Positions 1 through 64,000 of a stretch of DNA of 64,000 bases are shown here, piece by piece. The stretch is from Deinococcales bacterium (GTDB lineage Bacteria; Deinococcota; Deinococci; Deinococcales; JAAFIG01). The notes beneath the pieces are model-generated. The model was not told the origin of the DNA. It did no database searches and was given only the letters and a program-made list of their open reading frames with translations. Numbering within the stretch: position 1 is the stretch's first letter; each line of letters opens with the position of its first letter. The translations under genes were made by a program, and so were the position numbers. The DNA lies in assembly GCA_043778225.1 (NCBI GenBank), contig JAYWGM010000091.1:1-64000 (forward strand), in the 5' to 3' direction.

Positions 1-99
1 AACAAACTCAAGTATTGGCTATGAACAAACTCAAGTATTGGCTATGAACAAACTCAAGTATTGGCTATGAACAAACTCAAGTATTGGCTATGAACAAAC
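1..99 (+). repeat. 23-bp tandem repeat AACAAACTCAAGTATTGGCTATG, 4 copies plus a partial (may extend off-window)
   Basis: Identical units at 1, 24, 47 and 70, partial at 93; the last unit supplies the ATG of the next CDS. Confidence 0.95.
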
Positions 100-377
100 C
101 TAGAAACAACCAGCAAAAAACAGAAATCTCGCTCGAGCAACAACTGGCTCGAGTTTTTGGGCTGGGACTGAGTGCGGCGATATTCTTTTTAGGGATTGGA
201 ATTTTTATTCCTGCGGTTTTGTGGTTGGGAATTGCAGCGCTGATGCTTGTGCCAATGGCAGGTGCAGTGTTGGTCTGGAGGGACTCGAGCATCGAGCGAA
301 GTACCCGTTTCAACATTGGACTGGCTTTTTTTGGCGTGATGATGGCGGTGCTGATTGGTTTATTTTTACGGCGTTGA
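90..377 (+). CDS. small membrane protein (~3 TM)
   Basis: Hydrophobic ORF; start taken at ATG 90. Confidence 0.6.
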   Translation: MNKPRNNQQKTEISLEQQLARVFGLGLSAAIFFLGIGIFIPAVLWLGIAALMLVPMAGAVLVWRDSSIERSTRFNIGLAFFGVMMAVLIGLFLRR

Positions 378-430
378 AATTGCCAAGCAAGACACTATAC
401 CAACGCGAAACATGGTGTCTCGAGTTGGTT

Positions 431-1174
431 CTAGCTTTGCCATTGCTGTCCAAAGGCTTGGGCGTAGATTGTAAAACTCTGCTCAAGTAAAACCACAATC
501 AGCCTAATAAATGGCAGATGGTCGCCAGAGGTGTGTGCCAAATCCAATACTTGGTAATACTCAAGTCGGCGCTCGATTGGTAAAACAACGGCTGGGAAAC
601 CATTTTTGAGTAACTCGAGGTTTAGTAATAGTCGTGCAGTACGCCCGTTGCCATCGGTAAATGGATGGATTTTTACAAAGTCTGAGTGAACCCGAGCCGC
701 CCTTTCGATCGGATGGAGCGTTTGTCCCGTACCATTGTACCATTCGAGAAAATGCTGCATTTGTTCGGCTACCAACAGCGCATCTGGTGGGAGGTGTTCT
801 GCTCCAGCAATTCGTACATTGATGCTGCGGTAGCGTCCAGCATTCTTGTCATCCACATTTTTGAGGATTAACTGATGTAGGTTCTTGATTTGCCATTCCG
901 TAAACGCTTCTTCTCGAGCCACAATGCTTTCGACCAACAAAATCGCATCACGGTGATTGATTGCCTCGAAATGTTCACGCAGACTCTTTCCACCCACCGT
1001 GATGCCCTCGAGAACCACCTTGGTTTCCTTGAGGGTTAAGGTGTTGCCTTCAATGGCGTTGGAATGATACGTCCAGCGCAATACCAAATCCTGACGTAAA
1101 TTCTCAACCAAAGCACTTGGCAATGGGCGCAAAGCGTCAAGTTTGGTTTTTAGGGCATCGAGGTGAGCGAACAT
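431..1174 (-). CDS. Fic family protein (class II, N-terminal inhibitory motif)
   Basis: HPFTDGNGRTAR Fic motif and SNAIEGN inhibitory helix; ATG just after the leuS stop. Confidence 0.9.
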   Translation of the reverse strand: MFAHLDALKTKLDALRPLPSALVENLRQDLVLRWTYHSNAIEGNTLTLKETKVVLEGITVGGKSLREHFEAINHRDAILLVESIVAREEAFTEWQIKNLHQLILKNVDDKNAGRYRSINVRIAGAEHLPPDALLVAEQMQHFLEWYNGTGQTLHPIERAARVHSDFVKIHPFTDGNGRTARLLLNLELLKNGFPAVVLPIERRLEYYQVLDLAHTSGDHLPFIRLIVVLLEQSFTIYAQAFGQQWQS

Positions 1175-1178
1175 CAAA

Positions 1179-3620
1179 TCAACCTTTGACCACGATATTG
1201 ACCAAGCGCCCAGTGATGTAAATTTCTTTGACCACTTCTTTACCATCTATATGAACTCGAATACCCTCGAGACTGCGGGCTAAGGCAATCGCTTCAGCAC
1301 TCGAGATGGTCGAAAGTGCTTGGGTTTTGCCACGCATTTTGCCATTGACTTGCACCACCAATTCAAAGCTGTCCTTGACTAATTTACTTGGGTCAAAAGC
1401 ACGCCATGGCTGGAGGTGAACACTGTCTGTATGACCGCTTTTATTCCAGATTTCCTCGGCAATGTGCGGCGCATAAGGCGCAAGCATGGTGTTAAAAGTC
1501 TCGAGCGCCCAAGACCATTCAGGTGTGCCGTACACGGGGCTGCGTTTGGCTTTGCCCAAGAAATTACTCAATTCCATCATTGCGGCAATACTGGTATTGA
1601 ACTTAAAAACTTCGGTGTCTTCAGTCACTTTTTTCAAGGCATAATGAATCGCGTACTCGAGGTCAGCGATAGTGGTTGTTTCGTCGCTTCGCTCTTGCGT
1701 ATCAAAAAATAAACTCCAGACCCGCCCGAGCCAATTGGCGAGCCCATTTACGCCTTTGGGTGCCCATGGTCCGCCTTGGTCCCACGGTCCAATAAACTGC
1801 AAATACAAGCGCACCGTATCTGTGCCATATTCGCTTACCAAGTCGTCGGGGTCTACAACGTTGCCTCGAGACTTGCTCATTTTTTCGTTGTCTTCGCCCA
1901 GAATAATGCCTTGGTTCATCAGGCGTGTAAATGGTTCATCCCAGTCTATCAAACCAAGGTCGCGCATTGCTTTGGTCCAAAACCGAGCGTACAGTAAGTG
2001 CAAAATTGCGTGTTCGATACCGCCCGTGTACCAATCGGCAGGAGCCCATTTTTTAACCAGTTCTTTGTTGATTGCACTTTCAGAATTGTTTGGATCGAGG
2101 AATCGATAATAGTACCAACTCGAGTCCACAAAGGTATCCATCGTATCGGTATCGCGCACGGCTGCCCCACCGCATTTTGGGCAGTGGCAATTTTTCCAAT
2201 CCTCAAGCAAGGTTAATGGGCTTTGACCAGTTGGCAAAAACTCAGGGTTTTCAGGCAGTAAAATCGGCAAGTCACTTTCTGGTACAGGAACTTGTCCGCA
2301 CTTATCGCAGTAAATAATTGGAATCGGCGTTCCCCAATAACGCTGGCGGCTAATCAACCAATCGCGCAATCTGAAGGTGGTTTTTGGCTTACCTTTGCCA
2401 CTTGCCTCGAGTTCTTGAAGCATACGGGCTTTGGCTTCCACAACATTGAAGCCATTCAAAAAATCGGAGTTGATGGCGAGACCATCGCCCATAAATGGTT
2501 TATTTTCGTCCCAACCTTCTGGAGTTGCCACGGTGCGAATAATCTCGAGGTCAAATTTTTTGGCAAAATCCCAATCCCTTGCATCCTGCGCTGGCACACC
2601 CATAATACTGCCAGTCCCATAAGTCACCAGCACATAATCGGAAATAAAAATCGGGATGTCTTTATTTGTAAACGGATTGGTGGCATACGACCCCAAAAAC
2701 ACACCCGTTTTTTCTTTGCCTTCGGCGGTTCGGTCAATGTCCGAGGAGAGTTTAGCCACTGCCTGATAAGCAGTGACTTCCTCGAGTTTTTCGGGCTTGG
2801 TCAGGGCGGCAACCATTGGATGTTCGGGCGCAAGTACCATAAAAGTTGCCCCAAAGACGGTATCGGCTCGAGTTGTAAAGACCGTTAAAGTTCCGGCTGG
2901 CGTGGCAAAATCGAGTTCTGCGCCAACACTTTTGCCAATCCAATTGGTTTGCATCACCCGAACTTTTTCGGACCACTCAAGACCATCAAAATTTAAGAGT
3001 TCTTCGGCATAATCGGTAATTCGTAAATGCCATTGGCTCATCAGGCGGCGTTCGACCAGTGCGCCCGACCGATCGCCCCGCCCGTCAATGACTTGTTCGT
3101 TTGCCAGCACGGTGTTGTCTATCGGGTCCCAATTGACAAACGATTCTTTTTTGTAGGCTAAGCCTTTTTTATAAAACTGGACAAAAAACCACTGATTCCA
3201 TTTGTAGTAACTCGGGTCGCAAGTGCGTAATTCAGTTTGCCAGTCAATCATTGTTCCCATGCGCTTAAATTGACTCGTCATGTACTCGATATTGCTGGCT
3301 GTCCATTTGGCGGGGTCAATGTTATTTTTAATCGCCGCATTCTCGGCGGGTAAGCCAAAGGCATCAAAACCCATCGGGAACAGCACTTCGTAACCCTGCA
3401 TTCGCATAAACCGCGCCCTTGTATCGGGAATCGAAAACGCATACCAATGTCCGATGTGCAAATTGCCGCTTGGGTATGGAAACATGGTTGGCATATAGTG
3501 TTTGGGTTTACTCGAGTATAAATCAGTTTTATAAAGTTGGCTGGTTTCCCAAGCCTCGCGCCAACGCGGTTCAACTTCGTGAGGGTTATACTTTTCTAAA
3601 CGCTGTTTTTCTTGGGTCAT
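1179..3620 (-). CDS. leuS: leucine--tRNA ligase
   Basis: [13 protein letters not shown] (HIGH) and KMSKS motifs; AAGGAG RBS. Confidence 0.98.
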
Positions 3621-3651
3621 ACACTTCTCCTTAAAGATAACTTGAGGTCAT

Positions 3652-3678
3652 AAAAAAACCCCAGACACAAGACTGGGG
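3652..3678 (-). terminator. leuS attenuator terminator
   Basis: Minus strand CCCCAG-loop-CTGGGG followed by T7, in the 5' leader of leuS. Confidence 0.8.
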
Positions 3679-3697
3679 CGCGTACTCGAGAAAAAAC

Positions 3698-3742
3698 CTA
3701 ATCGAGTAAAGCCCCTGCCAAAAGTAGTCCAGAGCGAATCAT
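3698..3742 (-). CDS. Leu-rich leader peptide MIRSGLLLAGALLD
   Basis: 14-aa ORF with 5 Leu codons; TATATT 6 nt before the ATG; overlaps the antiterminator arm. Confidence 0.8.
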   Translation of the reverse strand: MIRSGLLLAGALLD

Positions 3743-3774
3743 CTGCCTAATATAGCTCGAGACCTACCGATTGG

Positions 3775-4035
3775 TCAATTGGGTATTTGGAAATCAGATG
3801 ACAGCCGCATCAGCAGCGCCGCCACTTGCGTTTCAGAAAATTCGCCTTTGAGCAGTTCTTTACCACTCGAATCTACTAAAACTGGAATTTCAAAGGCATA
3901 CAGCGCCATGCCTTCTGGGTTCTCGAGAATGTTAATTTCGTTGTACTCGAGTTTGGCGCTATCCAGCAGTGCTTTGGCTTTATCGCACAGCCCACAACCT
4001 GGTTTGGAGTAAAGAATTAACCTAACATTTGGCAT
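3775..4035 (-). CDS. glutaredoxin-like protein (DUF836/NrdH-like)
   Basis: YSKPGCGLCD CxxC motif, EIPVL. Confidence 0.85.
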   Translation of the reverse strand: MPNVRLILYSKPGCGLCDKAKALLDSAKLEYNEINILENPEGMALYAFEIPVLVDSSGKELLKGEFSETQVAALLMRLSSDFQIPN

Positions 4036-4076
4036 TGAGTTCCTTGAATCATTGTACATTGAACTGTGATTGTGTC

Positions 4077-4100
4077 GTAGGGGTGGGGCTTGCCTCACCT
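4077..4100 (+). repeat. GTAG-type REP-like palindrome
   Basis: GTAG followed by the GGGTGGGGC-TT-GCCTCACCT hairpin, intergenic. Confidence 0.45.
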
Positions 4101-4101
4101 T

Positions 4102-5649
4102 TCAGGCATGAGCCGCTTGGCTCGAGGCTGGGTTGTTGTGTACGCCTGCCATCAGTAAGCCAAGTTTTTCTTCGGTGGCTTCTTTTTGTGGCATCTCACC
4201 AACAATTTCGCCTTCGTACATCACCAAAATACGGTCAGATAAACTCATCACCTCGCCAAGGTCAGCACTGACCAGCAAGACCCCTAAGCCTTTATCTCGA
4301 GCCGCCACAATGCTGGTGTGAATAAACTCGATTGCCCCAATATCCACGCCTCGGGTGGGTTGAGAAGCAATCAGAATTTTCGGGTCTCGAGACATCTCTC
4401 GAGCCACAATGATTTTCTGGGCATTACCACCACTATAACTTTTGGCTGGATTTTCGATTGAACGTGGGCGAACATCAAATTCTTCGATGAGGGCTTTGGC
4501 ATTCTTTTCGATCGCATCAAATTTTAGTAAACCCAACGCCCCACAAAATTCATCGGTAAAATGATCGCCCAAAATTAAATTTTCTTGGGTACTGTATTCC
4601 ACTACAAGCCCGCGTTCGTTGCGGTCTTCGGGAATGTGCGACACACCCGCCATGCGAACGGCTCGAGCATCGCTATGAACCGCTTTGCCGCTGTAAACGA
4701 TTTGCCCAGAGTAATGCCCTAAACCCGTAATCGCTTCAACCAATTGCGATTGACCATTGCCTTCCACGCCAGCAATGCCAACAATTTCTCCGGCATGAAC
4801 CGTAAAAGTCACATTATTCACTTTTGGAATTTCGCCTTTTGCACCAACTGTCACGCCTTTTAACTCAAGCGCTGCACCGTCTGGGGTGGCATCGGCTTTT
4901 TTGACTTGCAGCACCACTTCACGCCCAACCATCATGTTGGCAATCTGTGGCGGGGTGATGCCGGGGGTTGGCACTGTGCCGATCATTTTGCCGTTTCGCA
5001 TCACCGAAATTCGGTCTGAAACTTCGATCACTTCACGCAATTTGTGCGAGATAAAAATAACTGCATTCCCGTCAAGCGCGTACTGCTGCAAGAACTTAAA
5101 TAATTCTTCGGTCTCGAGTGGTGTCAGCACCGCTGTTGGTTCATCCAGCACCAAGATATTACTTTCACGATAGAGCATTTTTAGGATTTCAACTTTTTGT
5201 TGCAAACCGACTGGCAGATTTTCGATTAAATCATCGGGTTTAAGTTCAAAATTAAATTGTTTAATCAGTTTATCGACTTTTTTACGAGCCGTTGCGAAAT
5301 CCAGACTGAATTTAGACCCCGGCTCGAGTCCCAAAATAATGTTTTCGGTCACGGAAAGCGGCTCGACCAGCATAAAATGCTGATGTACCATACCGATACC
5401 CGCGTTAATTGCATCGTTGGGGCTGCGTAAAGTTAAAGATTTACCATCAATTACAATTTCGCCACTGTCTGGTGATTGCATTCCATACAAAATTTTCATC
5501 AGGGTGCTTTTGCCCGCACCGTTCTCGCCCACCAAGGCTTTGACTTCGCCCCAACGCACATCAAACGAAACATTGTCGTTGGCTAAGACAAGCGGGAATT
5601 GTTTACGGATGCTACGCATATCCACAGCGAACTCGGCATGGTGATTCAT
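4102..5649 (-). CDS. nucleoside/sugar ABC transporter ATP-binding protein (two ABC domains)
   Basis: [33 protein letters not shown]. Confidence 0.92.
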
Positions 5650-5682
5650 GGCTGTATTCTCGCACTCGAGCCACTTAAACGC

Positions 5683-5717
5683 AAACAAAAAGAACGAGGG
5701 CTTTTGCCCTCGTTCTT
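5683..5717 (-). terminator. intrinsic terminator of rplM-rpsI
   Basis: 12-bp perfect stem with a T-rich tract on the minus strand. Confidence 0.85.
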
Positions 5718-5730
5718 GAGATTGGAAAAT

Positions 5731-6123
5731 TTAACGCTTACTAAATTGTGGGGCGCGGCGGGCTTTTTTCAAACCAGCTTTTTTACTTTCGACTTCACGG
5801 GAATCGCGGGTCAGTAAACCAGCCGGTTTAAGTTTAGCGCGGTTGTCGCCATCTAAACGCACCAAGGCTCGAGCTAAGCCAAGTTTGATGGCATCTATTT
5901 GACCGCTTGGACCGCCGCCTTCAACTGTAATTCGGGCATCGAAACGACCGACTGTGCCTGTTGCCCGCAAAGGCTCGAGGGCTTGCAAGGCACGCAAAAT
6001 ACCACGGAAATACTCTTGGAAATCCTTGCCATTGACGGTAATCCGACCTTCGCCGCCCTTCAAGAAAACGCGGGCGATGCTTGCCTTACGGCGACCTGTT
6101 CCGTAGAACATCTCGACTGCCAT
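5731..6123 (-). CDS. rpsI: 30S ribosomal protein S9
   Basis: YGTGRRK...KKARRAPQFSKR. Confidence 0.98.
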   Translation of the reverse strand: MAVEMFYGTGRRKASIARVFLKGGEGRITVNGKDFQEYFRGILRALQALEPLRATGTVGRFDARITVEGGGPSGQIDAIKLGLARALVRLDGDNRAKLKPAGLLTRDSREVESKKAGLKKARRAPQFSKR

Positions 6124-6572
6124 TATTTCACCTCATTTTTGCCATATGGCAGTGTCAGTTTGACAGGTTGTTGGGCTTCGTGCGGATGGGTTTCGCCTTT
6201 GTAGACTTTTAAGTGGTTATGCAGTGTCCGCCCCAAACGACCTTTTGGCAACATCCCAAAAACGGCGTGTTCAATCACCCGTTCTGGGTGCTTATCAATG
6301 GCAATGTTGGCTGGCTCGAGTTTCAAACCACTTGGGAAGCCACTGTAGCGGGTGTAAATTTTACCGCTCATTTTGTTGCCGGTTAAGACCACTTTTTCGG
6401 CATTGACGACAATCACATAATCGCCATTGCCCATGTGTGGCGTAAAATCGGGTTTGTGTTTGCCACGAATCAGGGTCGCAATTTGCGTCGCCAAACGACC
6501 AAGGGTCATCCCTTCGGCATCGACAACAACCCAGCGTGGATCGGTTTTGGTTGGGAGGTACGTTTTGAACAT
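6123..6572 (-). CDS. rplM: 50S ribosomal protein L13
   Basis: WVVVDA..LGRLA..GKHKP.FTPH..GMLPK. Confidence 0.98.
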
Positions 6573-6849
6573 AACAAATTCTCCAAAAAGTACACAGCTT
6601 TGCGCCGTGCATTTTCCGCTTGTAACTCGAGATGCCTGCTCGGGGGAACTTTGTCTCGAGGGTTGTCCGGGCGGTGTGACCGGCGGTTTGTACCTCTACC
6701 AAAGATCAAACCGAATTGGGAGTTTAGCACAGGGGCGCAAAAGCGAAAAGGACAGTTTATTAGACTCGAGGATAAATAGAAGGTAAAAAGGGTAAAGGGT
6801 AAAAAGGTTAAAAGTAAAAATCTTGTGTTTCTGACAAATCAAATCAATC

Positions 6850-6873
6850 GTAGGGGCGACCCTTGTGGTCGCC
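6850..6873 (+). repeat. GTAG-type REP palindrome
   Basis: GTAGGGGCGACC-CTTGT-GGTCGCC: GTAG tetranucleotide plus GC-rich hairpin. Confidence 0.6.
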
Positions 6874-6928
6874 ATGCCACAAAATCGTTATTTCTATTGA
6901 CCCAAGTTCAGCACGGTATTCTGCTCAG

Positions 6929-7405
6929 ATGAATTACCGAATTGGTTATGGCGAAGATGCACACAGGCTCGAGGCTGGCAGAAAACTGATTTTGGCAGGT
7001 CTCGAGATTTCAGATTCGCCACATGGTGCAATTGCCCATTCGGATGGCGATGCAATTCTGCACGCGGTGTCGGATGCGCTGCTTTCGAGCCTTGCTTTGG
7101 GTGATATTGGCAAGCTCTACCCAGACACCGACCCCAAATGGCAGGGGGTTGACTCGAGCATTATTTTGAAAGATTGTCTTGAGCGCACCAAAAGCGGAAA
7201 TCTCGAGCTAGTCAATTTGGCGGTGGTCGTGACCCTAGACCGCCCTAAGCTCGGGGTATGGCGCGACATCATGCGCGACCATCTGGCGGCATTGCTGGGG
7301 ACTGACCCTGAAAATGTTGGTATTACTTTCAAAACTTCCGAAGGACTTGCACCAATGCACGTGCAGACTCGAGTTACGGTACTTTTAGAGCAGAGAAAAG
7401 GTTAA
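6929..7405 (+). CDS. ispF: 2-C-methyl-D-erythritol 2,4-cyclodiphosphate synthase
   Basis: RIGYGEDAH, HSDGDAILHA, GDIG; TATTCT-N6-ATG leaderless start. Confidence 0.95.
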   Translation: MNYRIGYGEDAHRLEAGRKLILAGLEISDSPHGAIAHSDGDAILHAVSDALLSSLALGDIGKLYPDTDPKWQGVDSSIILKDCLERTKSGNLELVNLAVVVTLDRPKLGVWRDIMRDHLAALLGTDPENVGITFKTSEGLAPMHVQTRVTVLLEQRKG

Positions 7406-7445
7406 AGAGAAAAGTTGGCTTTTTTCTCCTTCCTCTTTTCTCCTG

Positions 7446-8240: not shown

Positions 8241-8300
8241 TAGCTATTATAAAGCCAACTCGAGCCTAAAAAAAAAGCGTATGATGGCTTACTAAGTTTT

Positions 8301-8361
8301 AATCCCGACTAATTCGCTCGAGTTTCTTGTGCTTGACGTGGTAGAGTCTATCTGATACAAC
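8301..8361 (+). promoter_or_regulatory. ferredoxin promoter with upstream imperfect palindrome (Rrf2/IscR-like)
   Basis: AATCCCGACTAATTCGCTCGAGTTT at 8301-8325, then TTGACG-N17-TACAAC. Confidence 0.45.
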
Positions 8362-8414
8362 TTGTTCATTCGAGCGCTTTATTTCGCTCTTCATTCCCCA
8401 AGGAGGAATCAAAA

Positions 8415-8651: not shown

Positions 8652-8664
8652 ATTCTTGTTCTCG

Positions 8665-8696
8665 AGCGCTCTGCATTTTTTGTAGGGCGTTTTTTT
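8665..8696 (+). terminator. intrinsic terminator
   Basis: Hairpin plus T tract after the ferredoxin gene. Confidence 0.7.
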
Positions 8697-8847
8697 ATGG
8701 CGCTATAAACACGCAAGAATTAGCATACACTGCCCTGACAATTTTGTCTGTGTTGTTTAGCTCAGACAATCCATGGTGCAAGTGGTTAAAATCATCTGAC
8801 CGAAGCCATCAATTATTCATTTTACCGCTTCGGCATCAGGAGGCGCT

Positions 8848-16459: not shown

Positions 16460-17556
16460 AAGTAAAGAAAACCATGTCTTTTGATGTAATTGTTTCGAGT
16501 ATTCTCGAGGCGGATAAAGAATTAAGTTTGCAAGCGACTCGAGCCGTGAACGTTAGTTTGACGCTGCGAAATTGGCTGATTGGTTTTTACATTGCTGAGT
16601 TTGAATTTAGGGGCGCTGACCGAGCGCAGTATGGTGAGAAACTATTGGACATACTTTCTGAGCGTTTAATGGCAGCTAAGTTATCTCGAGTGGAAGTACG
16701 TGAGTTACGGCGTTATAAGTTATTCTATTCGGTTTATCCAGATGTTATTGATGTATTACCTGATGCACTAAAAAATCGGTTGTTGCTTGAGCGTTCAATT
16801 CGGGAGACAGTGTCTCCCGAATTGAGAGTTCCAATTCACGATATTGTTACTCAGTTATCATTCAGCCACATTATTGAACTTATTGCGATTGAAGACAACT
16901 TAAAACGAGTCTTTTTTGAATTACAGTCGACTCGAGGTCATTGGTCTGTGCGTGAATTAAGAAGGCAAATCAGCAGCCTTTTCTTTGAACGAACTGCCAT
17001 GTCCACTGATTTGAAAAAAATGGTGGCAACTGCCCAAGTCAGGGCTGAGAGAATGCAGCCTATTCTCGAGATTAAAGACCCATATATCTTTGAGTTTCTG
17101 GGCATTAAACCCAACGAAACAGTGACCGAAAGCGTTGTCGAGCATGGCTTAATTACTAAAATTGGGGATTTTATTCTTGAGCTTGGGAATGGTTTTTGTT
17201 TCGAGGCTCGACAAAAACGAATTTTGATTGGGGATTCAACTTTTTTTGTGGATTTGGTCTTTTACCATCGTATCCTAAAATGCCATGTGCTGATTGAACT
17301 TAAAATTGGTAAATTCTCGCATGAACATATTGGACAACTCAACACCTATGTCACTTGGTATAAGCGCCACATGATGACCGAAAACGACAATCCACCAATT
17401 GGTATTTTATTGTGCAACGAGAAAGACAATGCACTTGTTGAGTACGCCTTGGCAGGTCTGGACAATGATGTATTCGTGTCAAAGTATTTGCTTGAATTGC
17501 CAAGCAAAGAAATTATTCAGCGTTTCTTAGAAGAGACGTTTCAGGAGAACTTATGA
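16456..17556 (+). CDS. YhcG/DUF1016 PDDEXK nuclease domain protein
   Basis: NWLIG, YG..L, LSFSH, WSVREL, KDPY.FEFL, DLVFY, IELK, PPIGILLC; true start may be 16474. Confidence 0.9.
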   Translation: MKVKKTMSFDVIVSSILEADKELSLQATRAVNVSLTLRNWLIGFYIAEFEFRGADRAQYGEKLLDILSERLMAAKLSRVEVRELRRYKLFYSVYPDVIDVLPDALKNRLLLERSIRETVSPELRVPIHDIVTQLSFSHIIELIAIEDNLKRVFFELQSTRGHWSVRELRRQISSLFFERTAMSTDLKKMVATAQVRAERMQPILEIKDPYIFEFLGIKPNETVTESVVEHGLITKIGDFILELGNGFCFEARQKRILIGDSTFFVDLVFYHRILKCHVLIELKIGKFSHEHIGQLNTYVTWYKRHMMTENDNPPIGILLCNEKDNALVEYALAGLDNDVFVSKYLLELPSKEIIQRFLEETFQENL

Positions 17557-20075
17557 AAATTCCGTATTCTTGGCTGGCTGAATTACTGCCCGAACTTCCA
17601 AAAGCAATTGACAACAATCCGCATAACCTCGAGCCGATTCTGGCAATGCTTGGCACAGGTGTCGAAGAGATTGTGTCCTTTCCCGCCCCACCTGAAGGCA
17701 TCATTTTTGGCGTGGTTCTCGAGTGTAGTCCAATTCCCGAAACGCATTTATTCAAGCTCCAAGTGGACGTTGGTCTCGAGAACAAAAAGCAAATCGTGAC
17801 TGGTGCGCCAAATGCTAAAGCGGGTGTGGGCGTAGCTATTGCGCCACCAAACACCACCATTCAAGGCAAACTGCTCGAGGAGCGCTTGGTGCAGGGTGAA
17901 ACCTCGTGGGGGATGGCGTGTAGCCCCAAAGAACTTGGGATTGGAGAGTATGCTGCTGGTTTGCTCGAGTTGCCAGTTAATAATGCGAAGGCTGGTACGC
18001 CGCTCTCGAGCTTCTGGGCGGCAGACTATGTGCTGGACATTGAAATCACCCCCAATCGAGCCGATGCGCTGTCGGTCTTGGGCATTGCCAGAGATTTGGC
18101 GGCAAAACTGAAACTCGAGTTGAAACCCCCGTCAAGCGGTCTCGAGTCAGTGCATGATGATACTTTCCCAGTTCAAATCGAACTCGACCCAAATTTAGGC
18201 TGTGACCGTTTTGTGGCTCGAGTGATTAAAAATGTCAAAAACCAGCCCAGCCCAGCATGGTTGCAACGCCGCCTAAGTTTATGTGGAATGCGTCCAATTT
18301 CTGCACTGGTGGATGCCAGCAATTACATCATGCTCGAGCTTGGGCAGCCGAGCGCAGCGTATGATGCACAGGATATTCCAGAAAATAAAATTGTGGTGCG
18401 AGATGCTGTTCTAGGCGAAAAGGTACTTGGTTTGGATGGTCTCGAGTACGAGTGCAACCCCAAGGATTTATTGGTCACCACCCCAGTAAACGGCGAATCT
18501 CGAGTGGTTGGCATTGGCAGTATGCTTGGCGCGAAATACTCGAGTATCCAACCTGACACGACCGATGTCATTCTCGAAGTGGCGCATTGGAATCCAGTCA
18601 GAATGCGCTTGACTGGACGGCGCTTGGGCATTGCCACCGATGCCCTGTACCGCTACGAGCGTGGTGTTGACCCGAACTTGCCAGTTTGGGCAGCGAACCG
18701 CTATATAGAGCTTGTACAAGCAGCTTGTGGCGGCGTTGTTCTCGAGGGACACCGTGATGTTGGTGGGGAAAAACCAAGAAAGGTGATTGAGATTCGTCCA
18801 GAATTTGTGAATCAGTATTTAGGTACAAATTTTGCTTGGGAAGAGATGCAAGCTGCCCTCGAGCGCTTGGGTTTTGAGGTTGAAGTCACCAATGATACAA
18901 AAATCTTCATGACCAAACCAACCGCAAAATCAGTGACCGATTATGCCGAGCAAAAAAGTATGCCACTTCGAGAAAGTCTAGGTGTTCTACGGTCTCACTA
19001 TGACGAGATTGCTGATAAAGTCGAACCTCTTTGGAAAGTCCACGCCCCAACCTACCGCGTCAACATGGACATCCCCGAGGATTTAACCGAAGAAATTGCT
19101 CGAGTCTTGGGGTATGATTTAATCCCCGAAACATTACCAAATATCAAAGTCAACGACCTCACCCGCAGCACTTCGGAAGCCTATAACCGTACTCGAGAAC
19201 TCAAAAACGCACTGGTCGGCTTGGGTTTTCAAGAGATTGTGTCTTACAGTTTTACCAGCCCCGAAGAAATGAAAATCATGAAATTGCCCGAGCCGATTCT
19301 CGAGCTTAGAAATGCCCAAAGTTCTGAACGCACACACTTGCGCCCATGCTTAATCGGCAGTTTACTGAATGCTGCCAAGACCAATTTGCAAGCCAAAAAT
19401 ATACTGCTGTTTGAAGTCGGACGGGTTTTCCCAAGCCTCGAACTCGAGGAAGAACGGCTTGGCGCACTTTTAATGGGCGATTTTTCCAGCAAAACATGGC
19501 AACCGAGTATGGCTGGCGGTTTCTATAGCTTTAAGGGTTTGCTCGAGGTTGCTGCCACCAAACTGGGGGATGACCTCAAAGTTGTGCCAATCGAAAAACA
19601 CGTGGCGCAAAAACCCGAATGCTTGCATCCCGGAATTGTGGGAGCGCTCGAGTATAACGGGCAATTTGTGGGTATTATCGGCGCGGTACATCCAAGTGTA
19701 TCAGCCGCCCTCGAGTTACCAAGCAACATCATGATTGCTGAAATTCGCTTGCCTTTGCCGACTCGAGCCTGGGCATTTGCCGACCCAAGCCGTCAGCCAG
19801 CCGCAATTCGGGACTTGGCAATTATTGCCGACAAAACCTTAGCGTACTCAAGACTCGAGGAAATCACCAAAAATGCAGCCGGTGCGTTTCTCGAGAGCGT
19901 TGCTCCATTCGATGTTTTTGAATCCGAACGGATTGGTTTTGGTAAGCGTAGCACAGCCATCACCATGACGTGGCGAGCGCAAAACCGAACCCTGACCGAT
20001 GAAGAAGTTGGGGCGGCGTTTCAAAATGTAATTGCGGCGATGCGAACTGCTGGTCTCGAGATTCGGGATTCATGA
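17553..20075 (+). CDS. pheT: phenylalanine--tRNA ligase beta subunit
   Basis: MKIPYSWL, ITPNRADALS, RYERGVD, DLTEEIAR, RDLA. Confidence 0.97.
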   Translation: MKIPYSWLAELLPELPKAIDNNPHNLEPILAMLGTGVEEIVSFPAPPEGIIFGVVLECSPIPETHLFKLQVDVGLENKKQIVTGAPNAKAGVGVAIAPPNTTIQGKLLEERLVQGETSWGMACSPKELGIGEYAAGLLELPVNNAKAGTPLSSFWAADYVLDIEITPNRADALSVLGIARDLAAKLKLELKPPSSGLESVHDDTFPVQIELDPNLGCDRFVARVIKNVKNQPSPAWLQRRLSLCGMRPISALVDASNYIMLELGQPSAAYDAQDIPENKIVVRDAVLGEKVLGLDGLEYECNPKDLLVTTPVNGESRVVGIGSMLGAKYSSIQPDTTDVILEVAHWNPVRMRLTGRRLGIATDALYRYERGVDPNLPVWAANRYIELVQAACGGVVLEGHRDVGGEKPRKVIEIRPEFVNQYLGTNFAWEEMQAALERLGFEVEVTNDTKIFMTKPTAKSVTDYAEQKSMPLRESLGVLRSHYDEIADKVEPLWKVHAPTYRVNMDIPEDLTEEIARVLGYDLIPETLPNIKVNDLTRSTSEAYNRTRELKNALVGLGFQEIVSYSFTSPEEMKIMKLPEPILELRNAQSSERTHLRPCLIGSLLNAAKTNLQAKNILLFEVGRVFPSLELEEERLGALLMGDFSSKTWQPSMAGGFYSFKGLLEVAATKLGDDLKVVPIEKHVAQKPECLHPGIVGALEYNGQFVGIIGAVHPSVSAALELPSNIMIAEIRLPLPTRAWAFADPSRQPAAIRDLAIIADKTLAYSRLEEITKNAAGAFLESVAPFDVFESERIGFGKRSTAITMTWRAQNRTLTDEEVGAAFQNVIAAMRTAGLEIRDS

Positions 20076-29546: not shown

Positions 29547-29581
29547 AAAACTCGAGCCTCCAATTAAAGAGGCTCGAGTTC
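29547..29581 (-). terminator. terminator whose stem contains two CTCGAG sites
   Basis: AACTCGAGCCTC-N8-GAGGCTCGAGTT. Confidence 0.75.
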
Positions 29582-29593
29582 AGCGACTTGGGC

Positions 29594-31417
29594 TTAGTTG
29601 GTACGGAATTCAAAATTGGTTGGATTGATGTTGAACACACCTGCACGAATAAAGTCTGGGTTGGTCAGCGCAGCATCTGTGTAGAAATTGCGTTGGATAC
29701 CACGTCCATCAAGAACTTTGTCGGCTACATTGGTGACATTGGCTTCACGAACACACAATGAATTCAAAGCAAAATTGGTGTATGGGGTATTAAAGCCAAT
29801 ACGGGCTGGTTCGTTGGTGTCTGGCAAAGTCACACGTTGGTCATCCGAGCTGCCCAACCATAACGCACCTGCACCTGTGTAACCAGCAATGTAATTGTTC
29901 AAGAAGTTATTACCTTCGGAACAACCTGTGTTTTGTACCACGGCAACACGGAATTCTGGGATAACATTTCCACCCGGTGCGCGGAATGGTGAAGCTGGTG
30001 GTAGTACCAAAATACCGTTAGGTTGTTCTGTACCGCTAATACTTGGTTTATTTAAGGCAATGCCCCCAGCACCTGTGGTGTCAATCACTTCTGACCAGGC
30101 AACTGTACCTTTACCCGCCACTGTTCCAAGTGAGCTTGCACGGTACTTCAAGCCCGATGGCGCACCATAATTTTCGATGTCCAAATCCCAATTGGTAACC
30201 GAGCCAGAATTGGTAATGGTTTTTTGGGTCAGAGGGAAATATGCGGTGCGAAGACCGAGTGCAAGTGTTGGAGCAAGTTTTGAGACTTTACCGACAGGGA
30301 TGTTGTATTCAACACGCAACCATGCAGTTACTGTAGATTGAACAATGCCTGACGGGAAGGTCGCAGTACCTGTTAAGGTGGTTGAATTCGCTGTTGCAAC
30401 ACTCAGTTTACCACCGGGCAGTGCGTCTACATCGGAGTTAAGTTTGGTGAGAGAATTTGGGAAAATTGGCACGTTAGCGCGAACACCCTTAGCAACAATT
30501 GTACCACCGGCATTGCGTTCAACATAAACCACAGTGCCAATCAGGTCGTTGTAGCACATATCTAAGTCAAATGGTACAGCAATATTGAAAACACTTGAAC
30601 CAGCAGGCAAGGTCAAGGTAGCGAAGGACTCGGTAGGACGGTAATTAATACCAGGAGCAATGTAAACCACTTGACCAGTATTGTTTAATCCCACAGGCTG
30701 ACTAAGCTCAACTCGCAATTGACCATTGGCTGGGGCTGGAGTGCATTCGTTTTGAAATCCTGGAGGCGTAGCAAGTGCAAACGCATTTTTACGCACCACA
30801 ACAATCGGGTTGGTAATGGTTACTTTATCGTTTGAAAGTGGCACAATACCTGTTCCCAAAGCTGGGATTGCCGACAATTGGTACGGTGTAACAACGTTCT
30901 GAACTGTAAATTTACCATCTGGGTCTGAAGCACTGTTACGGATGTTACCGCCAGCATCCACGATGGTGATGTTCACACCGCCTTCTGGTTTACCGCTCCA
31001 TTTAAGTACCGTACCGTTTACGGTTACGCCTGAAGCGGCGGTTGGATTGACATTGACCACTGTGTTACCAGTTACGGCTGGAGTCACCCCTTGCAAAGTT
31101 CCAGTAATCGTTACTGGTAATTGTGCGCTGACTGTAACCGGTGGTGTGTAATTAACTGTTGCTGAACCAGCAACAATTGGACTGGTACTGACCGACAATG
31201 TGCCCGTGGTAGCACTTGAAGGTGGGTTCATTGTCCACTGAACCGTACCTGTGGTGCTAGTGGGGGTAAATGCCGCCGTGAATGTAGCTGCCGCAGCACC
31301 GTTTTGCAATGATGCTGGTCCTGTGACCAGAACTGTTACAACTGGTGTTGGTCCACCACCACAAGCAACCAGTGTTGCCAATCCGAACGCTAATAATCCG
31401 AAAATCTTACTTTTCAT
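29594..31417 (-). CDS. large T/V/G/P/N-rich lipoprotein with Ig-like domains, S-layer-like
   Basis: Lipobox LVAC; carboxypeptidase-regulatory-like segment; strong RBS and own terminator. Confidence 0.65.
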   Translation of the reverse strand: MKSKIFGLLAFGLATLVACGGGPTPVVTVLVTGPASLQNGAAAATFTAAFTPTSTTGTVQWTMNPPSSATTGTLSVSTSPIVAGSATVNYTPPVTVSAQLPVTITGTLQGVTPAVTGNTVVNVNPTAASGVTVNGTVLKWSGKPEGGVNITIVDAGGNIRNSASDPDGKFTVQNVVTPYQLSAIPALGTGIVPLSNDKVTITNPIVVVRKNAFALATPPGFQNECTPAPANGQLRVELSQPVGLNNTGQVVYIAPGINYRPTESFATLTLPAGSSVFNIAVPFDLDMCYNDLIGTVVYVERNAGGTIVAKGVRANVPIFPNSLTKLNSDVDALPGGKLSVATANSTTLTGTATFPSGIVQSTVTAWLRVEYNIPVGKVSKLAPTLALGLRTAYFPLTQKTITNSGSVTNWDLDIENYGAPSGLKYRASSLGTVAGKGTVAWSEVIDTTGAGGIALNKPSISGTEQPNGILVLPPASPFRAPGGNVIPEFRVAVVQNTGCSEGNNFLNNYIAGYTGAGALWLGSSDDQRVTLPDTNEPARIGFNTPYTNFALNSLCVREANVTNVADKVLDGRGIQRNFYTDAALTNPDFIRAGVFNINPTNFEFRTN

Positions 31418-31755
31418 GAACGCCTCCTAGTGTTCTATGAGAAAACTTACAAAAAACTTACAAAACTTTACGCGGTAAGACACACGTTTAATGCCTCGAG
31501 AGTAGTATACACAGCTTTACCAAAAAAGTGCTGTGATGTATTTTACTTCTGTATACAACGATGTCTTTGGTAATATGAAAGATTGGCATCTATCTACAGT
31601 AGGGGTATTTTCGAGTCAAAATCGTGGTTTTCTCATGTGCAAATATCACAGCAAGTTAGCAGTACAAGCCACATTCTCGAGCCACAGCACCTAGCTTTTT
31701 GATGGTTGTGTTTTACCAAAAAACCTTAGATACTCGAGTCTAGGAGGCTCTAAAA

Positions 31756-61782: not shown

Positions 61783-62964
61783 ATGAAACGGGTTTTGTTT
61801 GGGCTATTTTGGCTGACACTTTGGGTCTCGAGTTTGGCGCAAAGCCAAGCGGTCGGGGTTGGTATTCTGCACTCTTTAAGTGGCACGATGTCCATTTCCG
61901 AGGTCAGCGTTGCCAATGCGACCGAATTGGCGCTCGAGGAAATCAATCAAAGCGGTGGTGTGCTGGGGCAGCAAATTTTAATCAGCAAAGAAGACGGGGC
62001 TTCTAATTGGAATCGTTTTGCCGAAAAAGCCAAAAAGCTGATTCTCGAGGATAAGGTCGTGGCTATTTTTGGTGGTTGGACCAGTGCCAGCCGTAAATCC
62101 TTGCTGCCAGTCATCGAGAAGTACCAGAACCTACTTTTTTATCCAGTCCAATTTGAAGGCAACGAGTGCAGCCCGAACATTATTTACAGTGGCGCACAGC
62201 CCAACCAGCAAGCCTTACCCGCCCTCGATTGGGCGCTTGAGCAGGGCTACAAACGTATTTATTTGCTGGGTTCGGATTATATTTATCCGCGCACAATCAA
62301 TAAAATCCTCAAGCGCCACATTGCTAAAAAAGGCGCGATTTTGGTAGGCGAAGACTATTTGCCACTTGGCGGCAGCAATTTTAGTGCGATTATCGCTAAA
62401 ATCCGCAACAGCCGCCCACAAATCATTATTAACACGATCAATGGTGACAGCAACATTGCTTTTTTTAAGGCATACCGCAGTGCTGGATTTGACCCAAGGC
62501 TGATTCCAACGATCAGTTTTTCGGTTGCCGAACCCGAACTTCGTACCATTGGGGTCAATTTGCTTTTTGGGCATTACACCGCTTGGAATTACTTTCAGAG
62601 TCTCGAGAATCCAGCCAACCGCTTATTTATCCAAAGTTATCGCCAGCGCTTTGGGTCAAACAGCGTTCTCTCCGACCCGATGGCACACGCCTACAGCAGC
62701 GTCTTTTTTTGGCGTAGAGCGGTCGAGAAAGCCAAAAGTTTTGACCCACTTCTGGTGCGCCAAGCCTTGGTTGGACTCGAGTTTAGGGATTCACCCTTGG
62801 GCAGAATCCGCATCGAAGCCAATGGCTCGCTCAAACAACGGGTCTATATTGGTCGGGTCGAGAGGAACGGGCAGTTTCAGGTGGTTTGGCGTTCTTTAAG
62901 CGAAGTCTTGCCAGAACCCTACGACCCACTGACTTTTCCGGGGCAGCGCTGCCCGAAGAACTAA
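61783..62964 (+). CDS. UrtA/AmiC-like urea/amide-binding protein
   Basis: GILHSLSGTMSISE, FGGWTSASRK, PNQQ, GSDYIYPR; TATAAT-N6-ATG. Confidence 0.88.
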   Translation: MKRVLFGLFWLTLWVSSLAQSQAVGVGILHSLSGTMSISEVSVANATELALEEINQSGGVLGQQILISKEDGASNWNRFAEKAKKLILEDKVVAIFGGWTSASRKSLLPVIEKYQNLLFYPVQFEGNECSPNIIYSGAQPNQQALPALDWALEQGYKRIYLLGSDYIYPRTINKILKRHIAKKGAILVGEDYLPLGGSNFSAIIAKIRNSRPQIIINTINGDSNIAFFKAYRSAGFDPRLIPTISFSVAEPELRTIGVNLLFGHYTAWNYFQSLENPANRLFIQSYRQRFGSNSVLSDPMAHAYSSVFFWRRAVEKAKSFDPLLVRQALVGLEFRDSPLGRIRIEANGSLKQRVYIGRVERNGQFQVVWRSLSEVLPEPYDPLTFPGQRCPKN

Positions 62965-63013
62965 AACCTCGAGACCACGCCACATTGTCCAAATCTGTGC
63001 AAGAATACAAGAC

Positions 63014-63814
63014 GTGGCGCAGGAACGCAGCAAATCTATCCCGATTCTCGAGCGAGCTTATCCAGACGCAACTTTGCCAATGCTCAATGCCTTGCCAGTT
63101 GGTGAACGCTCAATTTTGGGCTTGCACGCCAGTTTTGCCGAGTTGCCTAAAGTTTGCAACCACCTCGAGAAAACTGGTTTTGATGGGGCTTTAATCCTTG
63201 AGAATGCGGTGGTGCTGCTTTTTGAGGGCAAAATTATCAATGCTTGTGCGGCTCGAAATGAAGAATTGCTTTGGAGCGACCTCGCCCTGCTTGAGTTCTC
63301 GCGGCGCTATGCCGAAGGGCTGCGGCTCGAGGCGTTGGTTCTCGAGCGGCGTGTGGCTCATGCCTTATCGGGTTTACAAGACCGTCCGTGGCGCGTCCAA
63401 CCCTCAGATGGTTTTACGGGCGCTCGAGCCATGGGCAATGGTTATTTGGCACTGATTCAAGATGGTGATTCGTTTGGACGCTTACAAATTGGCAATCGTG
63501 AAACTGGCGCATACCCAGCCACGATGCGCCCCAAGGCTTTAACCTTGCCTCGAGTGATTGGCGCGTGGGCTGGTGAGCGCTATGCCCTGACCCTGCGTGG
63601 GCGCGATGCGGTTAATCCAATTACCGACACCTACAACCGCGCTCGAGCCGCCCATGGTAAGCCAGCCCTCGAAGTTTTAACCCTTTTGGGGCGCGGCAAG
63701 ACCCCGCTCGAGATTGCTGCTACTTTAGAACGTGACACCGCAAGCCTTGAAGCAGTGGTTGAGGTTTTTATCCGCGAGGGTTTACTCAGTCGCCGCCCAG
63801 ACCCGACCACATGA
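63014..63814 (+). CDS. hypothetical protein with C-terminal wHTH-like region
   Basis: 266-aa ORF filling the gap. Confidence 0.6.
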   Translation: MAQERSKSIPILERAYPDATLPMLNALPVGERSILGLHASFAELPKVCNHLEKTGFDGALILENAVVLLFEGKIINACAARNEELLWSDLALLEFSRRYAEGLRLEALVLERRVAHALSGLQDRPWRVQPSDGFTGARAMGNGYLALIQDGDSFGRLQIGNRETGAYPATMRPKALTLPRVIGAWAGERYALTLRGRDAVNPITDTYNRARAAHGKPALEVLTLLGRGKTPLEIAATLERDTASLEAVVEVFIREGLLSRRPDPTT

Positions 63815-63892
63815 GAAAAACCCTTTAGTTTTTCTTAAAATTTCACGTAAAAAGTACACTTGTCCTGCTAAACTGTTGTCAGGAGGTTTTTC

Positions 63893-64000
63893 ATGAAATT
63901 AAAACCCGCACATATTCTCGGACTAAGCTCACTCGCTTTGGCAGCTTTGGTGCTGTCGCCACTGGCTTTTGCCAAGAACAGTTACCGAATTGCTGCCCAA
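63893..64000 (+). CDS. secreted protein, N-terminus only (runs off the window)
   Basis: AGGAGG RBS; signal peptide ending LAFA. Confidence 0.7.
   Translation, partial: MKLKPAHILGLSSLALAALVLSPLAFAKNSYRIAAQ

Follow-up and report, generated by a model that had tools for sequence, protein, structure and literature searches.

CTCGAG is a HIP1-like, highly iterated palindrome in a family of Deinococcales

Introduction

The closest described counterparts of the word reported here are the cyanobacterial highly iterated palindromes, HIP1 (GCGATCGC) and the alternate HIPs (Elhai 2015, PMC4390886; Xu, Lawrence and Durand 2018, PMC5861425; Rodriguez-Cruz et al. 2026, PMC13756078). In the sections of these papers drawn on here, HIP1 is proposed as a signal for chromosome or nucleoid organisation and shows a long-range periodicity of 10–90 kb (PMC5861425); it raises natural transformation in a way that depends on methylation, and competence and type IV pilus proteins, not methylases, follow it phylogenetically (PMC13756078). 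We analysed a stretch of 64,000 nucleotides from a Deinococcales bacterium (the window) and the assembly to which it belongs, in which a first-pass annotation had described CTCGAG as HIP1-like. The label fits. CTCGAG is a short hyper-abundant palindrome (27-fold, against 15- to 300-fold for HIP1 in the same sections) that occurs in all frames and in coding and non-coding DNA, keeps its positions between species and spreads by point substitution, and the word contains an adenine or cytosine methylase target in at least some carriers. In contrast to HIP1, it has six bases instead of eight, it occurs in another phylum, and it is far denser, at about 1 per 160 bp, where the consulted text of PMC5861425 speaks of 'more than one motif per gene'. 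Again differing from HIP1, it visibly shifts protein composition, and a search for a conserved cognate methylase in the family where it is most extreme found none.

HIP1 has, to our knowledge, remained unexplained for three decades and is known essentially from one phylum. Other frequent words are better understood. The DUS of Neisseria, whose receptor is known, and the USS of Pasteurellaceae are non-palindromic signals of 9–12 bp, present about once per kb, with a demonstrated uptake bias. CTCGAG resembles them as a genome-wide word that occupies genes at places where the encoded protein can accommodate it and that recently imported DNA lacks, and an exchange-linked drive is proposed for it here too; it differs in being a 6-bp palindrome at 6.2 per kb. 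In E. coli, Dcm/Vsr very-short-patch repair, a repair tied to a methylase, raises the frequency of its target word, but the effect is small, depends on the deamination of 5-methylcytosine and needs Vsr, for which our assembly gave no match. Genomes normally avoid restriction targets rather than enrich them. XhoI-type restriction-modification (R-M) systems and CTCGAG methylases share this recognition word, and the methylases show activity in cultured organisms of this order, yet the XhoI-type nuclease family PF04555 was found in 0 of 12 genomes of the host family, and CTCGAG is enriched there rather than avoided.

Our literature search found no publication joining CTCGAG with 'highly iterated palindrome' or with Meiothermus. 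The metagenome papers on methylation motifs that mention CTCGAG are not about motif abundance, the sole paper combining HIP1, palindrome and Deinococcus is unrelated, and the searched text of Elhai (2015, PMC4390886) mentions neither CTCGAG nor the Deinococcota names looked for.

Results

The window contains 423 copies of CTCGAG (6.6 per kb), while 100 dinucleotide-preserving shuffles gave a mean of 8.89 and a maximum of 17; a separate calculation put the observed/expected ratio (O/E) of the window at 28.7. Sites lie in leuS, pheS, pheT, the genes for a sigma-70 factor and a starch/glycogen synthase, purC, glyA, phoH and uppS (Table 1); the hand count of about 26 copies in pheT that accompanied the original claim proved exact. 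In the whole assembly (G000; 4,029,277 bp in 107 contigs, GC 48.7%, 89% complete), CTCGAG ranks first of the 4,096 hexamers with 24,877 copies, about three times the next hexamer. This amounts to 6.2 per kb and 3.7% of the genome. The genome-wide O/E values that had been suggested as a check came to 26.7, 47.5, 15.1 and 3.6 under Markov models of order 0, 1, 2 and 3; at order 4 the value of 1.16 is trivial, because the 5-mers themselves consist of the motif.

Table 1. Coordinates of the features discussed (positions in the window)
Feature	Position	Strand	Description
Whole window	1..64000	.	Sites in housekeeping genes and in the spacers between them; Pfam on 50 ORFs
leuS	1179..3620	-	Ordinary housekeeping gene; 10 sites between 1266 and 3511; Pfam
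pheT	17553..20075	+	26 sites in 2.5 kb; Pfam B3_4, tRNA_synthFbeta, FDX-ACB, B5
Longest motif-free stretch (1,922 bp)	29572..31494	-	Gene for a 607-aa predicted secreted protein

The sites use all reading frames as well as intergenic DNA, as had been claimed. In a crude set of 3,475 ORFs of the assembly, 22,075 sites are distributed as 13,010 in the CTC-GAG frame and 4,448 and 4,617 in the other two. Density is 6.17 per kb within ORFs and 6.18 per kb outside them (O/E 26.2 and 31.8, respectively); of the sites in the window, 356 fall in ORFs, at 6.4 per kb, and the other 67, at 7.8 per kb, lie outside. Shuffling synonymous codons, which preserves every protein and the codon usage of each gene, left 2,320 sites, so that the observed number is 9.5 times higher. 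The enrichment thus did not vanish once codon and dipeptide usage was controlled for, and a codon or dipeptide artefact was rejected for this genome. The excess acts at the DNA level, since it survives the codon shuffle and is equal inside and outside ORFs. Proteins are pulled towards Leu-Glu by the motif: Leu-Glu is the most over-represented dipeptide (O/E 2.32), and 69% of its occurrences are encoded by CTCGAG. In pheT, 19 sites encode Leu-Glu and 5 and 2 lie in the remaining two frames; the translation has 21 Leu-Glu pairs against 8.1 expected, and across lineages the Leu-Glu count of PheT follows motif density.

CTCGAG behaves as a word and not as part of a longer repeat element. Over all ten positions that flank the word, from -5 to +5, each base has a frequency of 0.17–0.31, near background, and the top octamers are simply all the flank variants of CTCGAG; a dispersed repeat unit of the REP or MITE type was rejected on these grounds. 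Placement is near-Poisson, which together with the uninformative flanks points to the same conclusion: at scales of 0.5–5 kb, on contigs of 139 kb or shorter, we saw no regular spacing and variance-to-mean ratios of 0.88–1.48, as for other frequent hexamers. Density is uniform along the chromosome, and gaps above 400 bp are 19% rarer than in a geometric distribution (1,642 of 24,770, against 2,037 expected). The protein encoded in the longest motif-free stretch of the window is rich in T, V, G and N, has no Pfam family and no Leu-Glu pair, and its gene has normal GC (0.47). In the assembly, 19 motif-free gaps are at least 1.5 kb long, and 14 of them are islands of low GC (0.31–0.39), a pattern to be expected if imported DNA arrives unmarked. 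No Rfam match was obtained in the six largest gaps, and rRNA was therefore rejected as their cause. Motif density proved useless as a native-versus-imported test for methylase genes, because even genes of 37–38% GC carry 2.7–5.1 sites per kb.

The recurrence of CTCGAG in terminator stems, also claimed in the first-pass annotation, was weakly borne out. Positions 1–20000 of the window contain 24 terminator-like sites, compared with 26.2 in shuffles, and no strong terminator-like hairpin there holds a whole CTCGAG; the hairpins that the motif nucleates are mostly trivial ones of 5 pairs. Across the whole genome, the tip of a long hairpin is formed by a CTCGAG-N-CTCGAG pair in a few cases. A depletion of one-mismatch variants, proposed as a further signature, was absent relative to base composition (O/E 0.15–1.4). 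Among the 64 palindromic hexamers of the assembly, 34 have an O/E of 0.1 or less, compared with 2.1% of the non-palindromic hexamers.

All 12 sampled genomes of the host family carry CTCGAG at 4.3–6.5 per kb. Several other genera of the order have 1.4–3.4 per kb, one large genus has few sites, and the g9 genomes, probably Thermus, are not enriched and carry M.TaqI orthologues. Site conservation in orthologues, which had been put forward as a check, was pronounced: across four congeners (n = 69–462 sites per genome), 64–69% of CTCGAG sites kept their position, compared with 22–35% for other hexamers, and the values in another genus were 43% and 15%. Sites thus keep their position between species 2–3 times more often than other hexamers do. 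Polarised losses (55/281, 68/239 and 68/264) reached 0.38–0.47 of those of control hexamers, and single-step losses alone about 0.22–0.30. Gains through a transition (10/70) exceeded the 4.0% of the control about 3.5-fold (p = 5e-4); gains through a transversion (2/76) were not significantly raised. All 12 polarised gains are single substitutions in ungapped aligned hexamers: CTCGAG spreads by nucleotide substitution and not within an inserted repeat. The directional process postulated at the outset thus both preserves sites, with losses 2–4 times fewer, and creates them. On the short sister branches G001 and G003 we counted 59 losses, no gain from 92 conserved near-cognates and 2 gains overall, implying that the push is non-uniform, or weak on short time scales.

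A link to a cognate methyltransferase, another part of the original proposal, is documented only in cultured relatives. For Marinithermus hydrothermalis, Meiothermus chliarophilus and M. ruber, Blow et al. (2016, PMC4752239, S3 Table) list the active N6-methyladenine (m6A) methylases of CTCGAG M.Mhy14884I, M.Mch9957IV and M.Mru1279II, and no cognate nuclease. No methyltransferase, XhoI-type nuclease or Vsr was found conserved across the host family, a negative limited by the 57–94% completeness of the metagenome-assembled genomes (MAGs) and, for methylases, by specificities that are not readable from sequence. G000 has more than 20 DNA methylase genes, one with a TaqI-type specificity domain. 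Among 19 family genomes, PF01555 occurs in 16 (it is absent from the single-contig G013), PF02086 in 16, PF00145 in 17 and PF02384 in 18, the last with no class in common, and an all-against-all comparison of the methylases of four genomes gave no common orthologue. Neither G000 nor its family yielded orthologues of the published CTCGAG methylases or of XhoI-type R-M systems. Elsewhere in the order, PF04555 is present in 5 of 161 genomes (4 of 15 in f4, and one broken copy in f2). Vsr (PF03852) had no match in G000; the same search was positive in 3 of 14 control genomes.

Individual candidates were likewise dropped: the Type I systems on C15, C9 and C64, which HsdS and HsdR adjoin; an R-M islet on C92; an enzyme with a TaqI_C domain on C65, present by ORF size in about 6 of 18 family genomes and with weak PDB matches only; and solitary Type-ISP-like methylases on C1 and C99, whose occurrence is sporadic (6 of 12 in the host family, 14 of 45 in the motif-poor f3). 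The same holds for a TaqI-type enzyme of G025 that fits the Marinithermus gene and has orthologues in 25 of 25 non-enriched g9 genomes and 0 of 12 of the host family; for the family of a solitary 558-aa methylase of G027, absent from the host family, g22 and g24, and whose carriers outside Deinococcota show no CTCGAG enrichment; and for the N6_N4 partner of the f4 XhoI nucleases, whose best match in G000 has 26% identity.

Discussion

We read CTCGAG as a genuine highly iterated palindrome held by a directional fixation bias at the DNA level (selection or biased conversion). Our preferred explanation, to which we give a probability of about 40%, is a HIP-like self mark favoured in transformation or recombination. 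The enrichment would correspond to a scaled advantage S = ln(27 to 32), about 3.3–3.5 per site, which would predict gains multiplied by 3.4 and losses by 0.13, close to the measured values; a push of this size would be weak to moderate at very many sites, rather than strong selection per site. By analogy with HIP1, DUS and USS, the push would most likely arise during DNA exchange between relatives: fragments carrying CTCGAG as a mark of 'self' would be favoured for uptake or integration, and the spread of alleles containing the word would follow. Adenine methylation of the word, known in cultured relatives, may help a putative reader protein to recognise it. Such a self mark seems to us the most likely model. 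ComEC (PF03772), found as a single copy in 18 of 19 family genomes, is not discriminating, because 10 of 14 control genomes have it too. Several results count against the model, namely the g9 genomes with M.TaqI orthologues and no enrichment, the failure to find a conserved reader or methylase in the host family, the excess of losses over gains on the G001 and G003 branches and the transversion gains, which are not raised. A density of one site per 160 bp also far exceeds what any uptake signal known to us needs.

Methylation-coupled biased mismatch repair (Elhai's ratchet), by which a methylase marks its sites and repair resolves near-cognate mismatches towards the methylatable word, is a conceivable but doubtful alternative. 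Unlike 5-methylcytosine, N6-methyladenine does not give rise to a mismatch by deamination, which counts against such a ratchet. Raised gains and lowered losses match the bias expected of it, G000 is rich in methylase genes, including the one of TaqI-type specificity, and the CTCGAG methylases active in three cultured Deinococcota look like orphans. The alternate HIPs, in the consulted part of Elhai (2015, PMC4390886), are also accompanied by a cognate methylase. Set against this, no common methylase lineage was found in the host family, whose MAGs are 57–94% complete, G000 gave no Vsr match, and two of the candidates are distributed the wrong way, the G025 enzyme that fits the Marinithermus gene occurring throughout the non-enriched g9 genomes and nowhere in the host family, and the 558-aa methylase missing from the host family, g22 and g24 and having non-enriched carriers outside the phylum.

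It is unlikely that CTCGAG is a methylase-independent 'self' watermark, with a putative reader biasing uptake, recombination or repair while nearly all other six-base palindromes are purged. If so, own DNA would be defined by one permitted, hyper-abundant palindrome, and the word would represent a second and denser HIP system of independent evolutionary origin, of which cultured Meiothermus relatives carry a milder form.

We regard as improbable a mark, Chi-like or an immunity tag, by which dense CTCGAG protects own DNA from nuclease, defence or repair functions while DNA without it is degraded. The purge of palindromic hexamers indicates heavy restriction pressure, the genome has many R-M and defence genes, and motif-free DNA is limited to a few low-GC islands; yet no candidate reader was found, a palindrome has no direction, unlike Chi, and motif-free islands of 2–5.6 kb persist in the genome. 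A role of the sites as binding or structural signals in chromosome or nucleoid organisation, again by analogy with HIP1, appears more improbable still: density is uniform over the chromosome and both genic and intergenic sites are conserved, as reported for HIP1 in the consulted sections of Xu et al. (2018, PMC5861425), but placement is near-Poisson with no regular spacing over the scales and contigs analysed, and some 25,000 sites far exceed known nucleoid signals. That the excess is a by-product of codon, dipeptide or base composition can be set aside with near certainty, for although 59% of coding sites fall in the Leu-Glu frame and codon usage alone lifts CTCGAG in GC-rich DNA (a g9 piece has an O/E of 3.8 by base composition, yet 1.1 against the codon shuffle), the codon-shuffle result, the equal density outside ORFs, the use of every frame and a GC of just 48.7% speak against it.

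CTCGAG thus represents a phenomenon of the HIP kind that occurs independently in Deinococcota, in a stronger form in which one hexamer occupies several per cent of the genome and proteins are visibly reshaped. Within one order it forms a graded series (extreme, moderate, none, scarce). Existing measurements of CTCGAG adenine methylation cover cultured members of genera in this series, and the origin of highly iterated palindromes thereby becomes a comparative and experimental question. For uncultured genomes of the host family the motif is a strong indicator of native as opposed to imported DNA and a signal for binning, and it biases codon-, dipeptide- or k-mer-based analyses of these genomes.

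GC-rich viral contigs carry up to 6.7 CTCGAG per kb, but 1.8–2.8 times their codon shuffle; we draw no inference from them, because they have no host assignment and were chosen for site clusters. As a separate observation, G000 carries a Deinococci-type RecJ C-terminal domain.

The motif excess lies at the DNA level

CTCGAG occurs 423 times in the window, against a mean of 8.89 and a maximum of 17 in 100 dinucleotide-preserving shuffles, which bears out the over-representation described in the first-pass annotation; the hand count of 26 copies given there for pheT, identified by Pfam, matches our site list exactly. Genome-wide, the source assembly (G000; 4,029,277 bp in 107 contigs, 89% complete, GC 48.7%), in which the window is C91:1-64000, holds 24,877 copies (6.17 per kb), and CTCGAG ranks first among all 4,096 hexamers; the runners-up (at most 8,682 copies) are neighbours that overlap it. 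For Markov models of rising order, from 0 to 3, the observed/expected ratio (O/E) is 26.7, 47.5, 15.1 and 3.6; order 4 gives only 1.16, because the 5-mers themselves consist of the motif. The flanking bases carry little information; the unit is thus the hexamer, and we rejected a longer repeat. A depletion of one-mismatch variants, also raised in the annotation, is not seen: their O/E is 0.15-1.40, and the commonest variant at each position is the transition.

In a crude gene set (3,475 ORFs, each 100 aa or longer and none overlapping another), 22,075 copies lie inside ORFs. Shuffling synonymous codons within each gene, which preserves every protein, hence every dipeptide, as well as per-gene codon usage, left 2,320 copies (10 shuffles), and shuffling codon order left 1,032. 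The enrichment therefore does not vanish once codon and dipeptide usage are controlled for, the one outcome that the annotation had named as fatal to its proposal. All three reading frames are used, as claimed (13,010 copies as CTC-GAG, Leu-Glu; the two remaining frames have 4,448 and 4,617), and intergenic DNA is indeed enriched too: density is 6.17 per kb in ORFs and 6.18 outside, with O/E against local composition of 26.2 and 31.8. A compositional artefact is excluded for G000.

The most over-represented dipeptide of the genome is Leu-Glu (O/E 2.32), and 69% of its 18,842 Leu-Glu pairs are encoded as CTCGAG. PheT, being one gene, serves as an illustration of this figure: Leu-Glu pairs number 21 in G000 (8.1 expected) and 17 in G013, from a second genus of its family (7.2 expected), then 17 in G105, whose genus is moderately enriched (9.1 expected), 11 in G139 (7.1 expected), 13 in G090, whose genus is non-enriched (13.3 expected), and 4 in G028, whose genus is motif-poor (7.6 expected). 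The last four of these genomes lie outside the family and show Leu-Glu at 3-7 of the 19 in-frame PheT sites of G000.

Coordinates of features (window positions unless a contig of G000 is given)
Feature	Position	Strand	Remarks
Inverted repeat, first arm	15481-15526		46 nt
Inverted repeat, second arm	15940-15985		46 nt
pheT	17553-20075		
CTCGAG-free gap	29572-31494		normal GC
Predicted secreted protein	29594-31417	-	607 aa; signal-peptide-like start; T/V/G/N-rich; no Pfam family
Solitary methylase	C1:34616-37834		outside window
Solitary methylase	C99:49951-52971		outside window

Sites are preserved and created in the family

Orthologous stretches of five relatives, 34-115 kb per genome, were projected onto G000; divergence is 16-19% for congeners and 27-30% for G009, which belongs to another genus. 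Sites are conserved in orthologues: for four congeners (n = 69-462), an earlier, smaller projection had CTCGAG still in position in 64-69% of cases, compared with 22-35% for the rest of the hexamers, and for G009 the two values are 43% and 15%. Change was polarised where two or more other lineages agreed. On the branches of G000 and its congeners G006 and G007, 55/281, 68/239 and 68/264 sites were lost. Relative to the rate at which control hexamers change, this is 0.38-0.47; with single-step losses only, it is about 0.22-0.30. Hexamers one transition away became CTCGAG in 3/24, 5/24 and 2/22 cases, the pooled 10/70 (14%) exceeding the 4.0% per specific transition in control hexamers (p=5e-4); transversion gains (2/76 against 1.0% in controls) were not significant. 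Two further congeners, G001 and G003, sit on short sister branches where 59 of 546 sites were lost (0.59 of control, p=9e-7) and none of 92 conserved near-cognates gained the motif (0.85 expected); 2 gains occurred in all. Their genomes have 5.2 sites per kb, the minimum for a genus whose other members have 5.9-6.4; there are hints here of a weakened driving force in that lineage. With a scaled advantage S of ln(27 to 32), about 3.3-3.5, gains would be multiplied by 3.4-3.6 and losses by 0.11-0.13. These values are close to those measured, allowing for control hexamers being under constraint too and for multi-base changes, some perhaps misaligned, making up over half of the losses scored.

Among 161 genomes of the order that are at least 85% complete, density varies widely (table below). 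An 8-mer form of the motif is enriched in 18/18 genomes of the G000 family, and members with a sampled GC of 0.44 to 0.60 all have O/E of 15-33. Relative to codon shuffles, single loci reach 5.6 (G013), 3.2 (G105), 2.0 (G139) and 1.1 (G090). A directional bias at the DNA level preserves and creates CTCGAG across this family, and it is strong enough to bend proteins.

CTCGAG per kb across the order (counts with rounded genome sizes; GAGCTC, the control word, is palindromic too and avoided in many surveyed genomes)
Group	Genomes	CTCGAG per kb	Control word
Family of G000 (f1)	12/12	4.3-6.5	
Genus g13	13/13	1.4-3.1	
Genus g22		2.7-3.4	
Genus g24		3.1	
Family f2		0.3-2.6	
Family f4		0.7-2.9	
Genus g9	25	0.6-1.1	same
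Genus g7	44	0.01-0.27	equally scarce

GC-rich viral contigs (L404, L386/L387, L354/L355 and others; GC 0.58-0.73), loci chosen for site clusters and not assigned to any host, carry 3-6.7 copies per kb, with O/E of 8-20 by composition and 1.8-2.8 against codon shuffles; Leu-Glu is about 2 times expected, and GGCC and GAGCTC are plentiful.

Source of the bias

The source of the bias, unlike the bias itself, we infer. Our leading, still tentative reading (probability about 0.4) is that CTCGAG marks self DNA, in that transformation or recombination would favour DNA bearing it. We rank it first because no other class of process is known to reach such enrichments, because no mutagenic methylation is needed, because ComEC is present in 18/19 family genomes, and because it agrees with the direction of the HIP1 field. 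Against it stand the lack of enrichment in g9 and the net loss on the sister branches of G001 and G003. The motif is best grouped with the cyanobacterial highly iterated palindromes (HIPs), as a variant and not as HIP1 itself, and we found no literature report of its abundance as a motif. In the HIP literature, HIP1 is argued from conservation to be kept by selection (Xu et al. 2018, PMC5861425), HIPs are linked to cognate methylases and a repair ratchet is proposed (Elhai 2015, PMC4390886), and HIP1 is tracked by type IV pilus and competence proteins, not methylases (Rodriguez-Cruz et al. 2026, PMC13756078); the last cites experiments where HIP1 increases transformation, an effect that depends on methylation, and proposes a phylum-wide uptake or 'watermark' role.

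Second comes a methylation-coupled repair bias that would generate CTCGAG, which we regard as doubtful. Active type II m6A CTCGAG methylases are reported from Marinithermus hydrothermalis, Meiothermus chliarophilus and M. ruber, with no cognate nuclease named in the relevant part of Blow et al. 2016 (PMC4752239), where the M. hydrothermalis enzyme is annotated 'Eco57I' and that of M. chliarophilus 'type I ... methyltransferase subunit'. By position and annotation, a 447-aa gene of G025 matches the M. hydrothermalis methylase, and its product is a full-length M.TaqI homologue (PDB M.TaqI match, E 1e-126). We dropped this enzyme as a candidate, since orthologues (51-58% identity; e.g. L118-L128) occur in 25/25 sampled, non-enriched g9 genomes and in 0/12 of the G000 family. 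A 558-aa solitary methylase is present in 10/13 g13, 24/45 f2, 0/3 g22, 0/2 g24 and 0/12 f1 genomes; its family is spread over many phyla, and 11 of 80 listed loci show CTCGAG enrichment (O/E at least 4). Nine of the 11 are labelled Deinococcota, Meiothermus, Truepera or Trueperaceae; the remaining 69 loci have O/E of 0-2.8.

G000 itself is rich in DNA methylases, with matches to PF02384 (8), PF01555 (6), PF00145 (6), PF02086 (4) and PF07669 (8). Across 19 family genomes no methylase family is universal (PF01555 in 16, with none in single-contig G013; PF02086 in 16; PF00145 in 17; PF02384 in 18, without a shared class), and an all-against-all comparison of G000, G013, G006 and G010 gave no common methylase orthologue. 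Nucleases of XhoI type, with an N6_N4 methylase as partner, are present in 4/15 f4 genomes, with one broken copy in f2; none was found in f1 genomes, and neither an XhoI-family nuclease nor Vsr was found in G000 (89% complete). These searches did not single out a CTCGAG enzyme in the family, a negative limited by MAG incompleteness and unrecognised methylase families. Two solitary methylases (~1,000-1,070 aa) on C1 and C99, whose C-terminal specificity domain is of Type ISP, have no Pfam nuclease or helicase match and adjoin rpsO, and recJ and rpsA; such Type-ISP-like enzymes are sporadic in the order.

A defence or self-protection tag, third in our ranking, is improbable.

Least probable of the four is a structural role. 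The 24,770 gaps between sites (mean 160.6, median 117, CV 1.00) are nearly random: counts per bin are near Poisson (variance/mean 0.88 at 500 bp, 1.01 at 1 kb, 1.48 at 5 kb), with a dispersion resembling other frequent hexamers. Pairs <20 bp apart are scarce (0.3-0.5 of expectation), gaps of 50-200 bp reach 1.2 times expectation, and 1,642 gaps exceed 400 bp where a geometric distribution predicts 2,037, a shortfall of 19%. No pair lies exactly 6 bp apart, a spacing that would create GAGCTC, an avoided word. CTCGAG-N-CTCGAG (N being any base; exactly 7 bp) forms 123 pairs, three to four times neighbouring distances, and some cap long hairpins with T runs next; the placement in terminator stems claimed at first is weakly supported.

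Motif-free stretches, purged words and a repeat beside pheS

Only 19 gaps of at least 1.5 kb lack the motif, 14 of them with GC of 0.31-0.39; the six largest contain no Rfam family. The window's only long CTCGAG-free gene, despite its normal GC, encodes the predicted secreted protein.

There is a near-global purge of six-base palindromes in G000: O/E is at most 0.1 in 34/64 (median 0.077), against 2.1% of non-palindromic hexamers (median 0.815). Tetramer avoidance is ruled out as the cause, CTGCAG standing at 0.01 while TGCA is at 1.04. Taken together, the 63 palindromes besides CTCGAG stand at O/E 0.31 for the window; six family genomes give 0.31-0.54, and small samples of outgroups give 0.48-0.98. 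GGCC is nearly missing (131 copies, O/E 0.01), and GATC (0.13) and CTAG (0.22) are low. GGCC is absent from 17/19 CTCGAG-free stretches, including all low-GC islands but one, as if imports were filtered at entry.

Just after pheS, the inverted repeat arms (93% complementary, 413 nt apart) bracket a 169-aa ORF without Pfam family; they match many places in G007, and by sequence the pair looks like a miniature mobile element. Genes for a GNAT acetyltransferase and a YhcG-type PD-(D/E)xK nuclease also lie between pheS and pheT.
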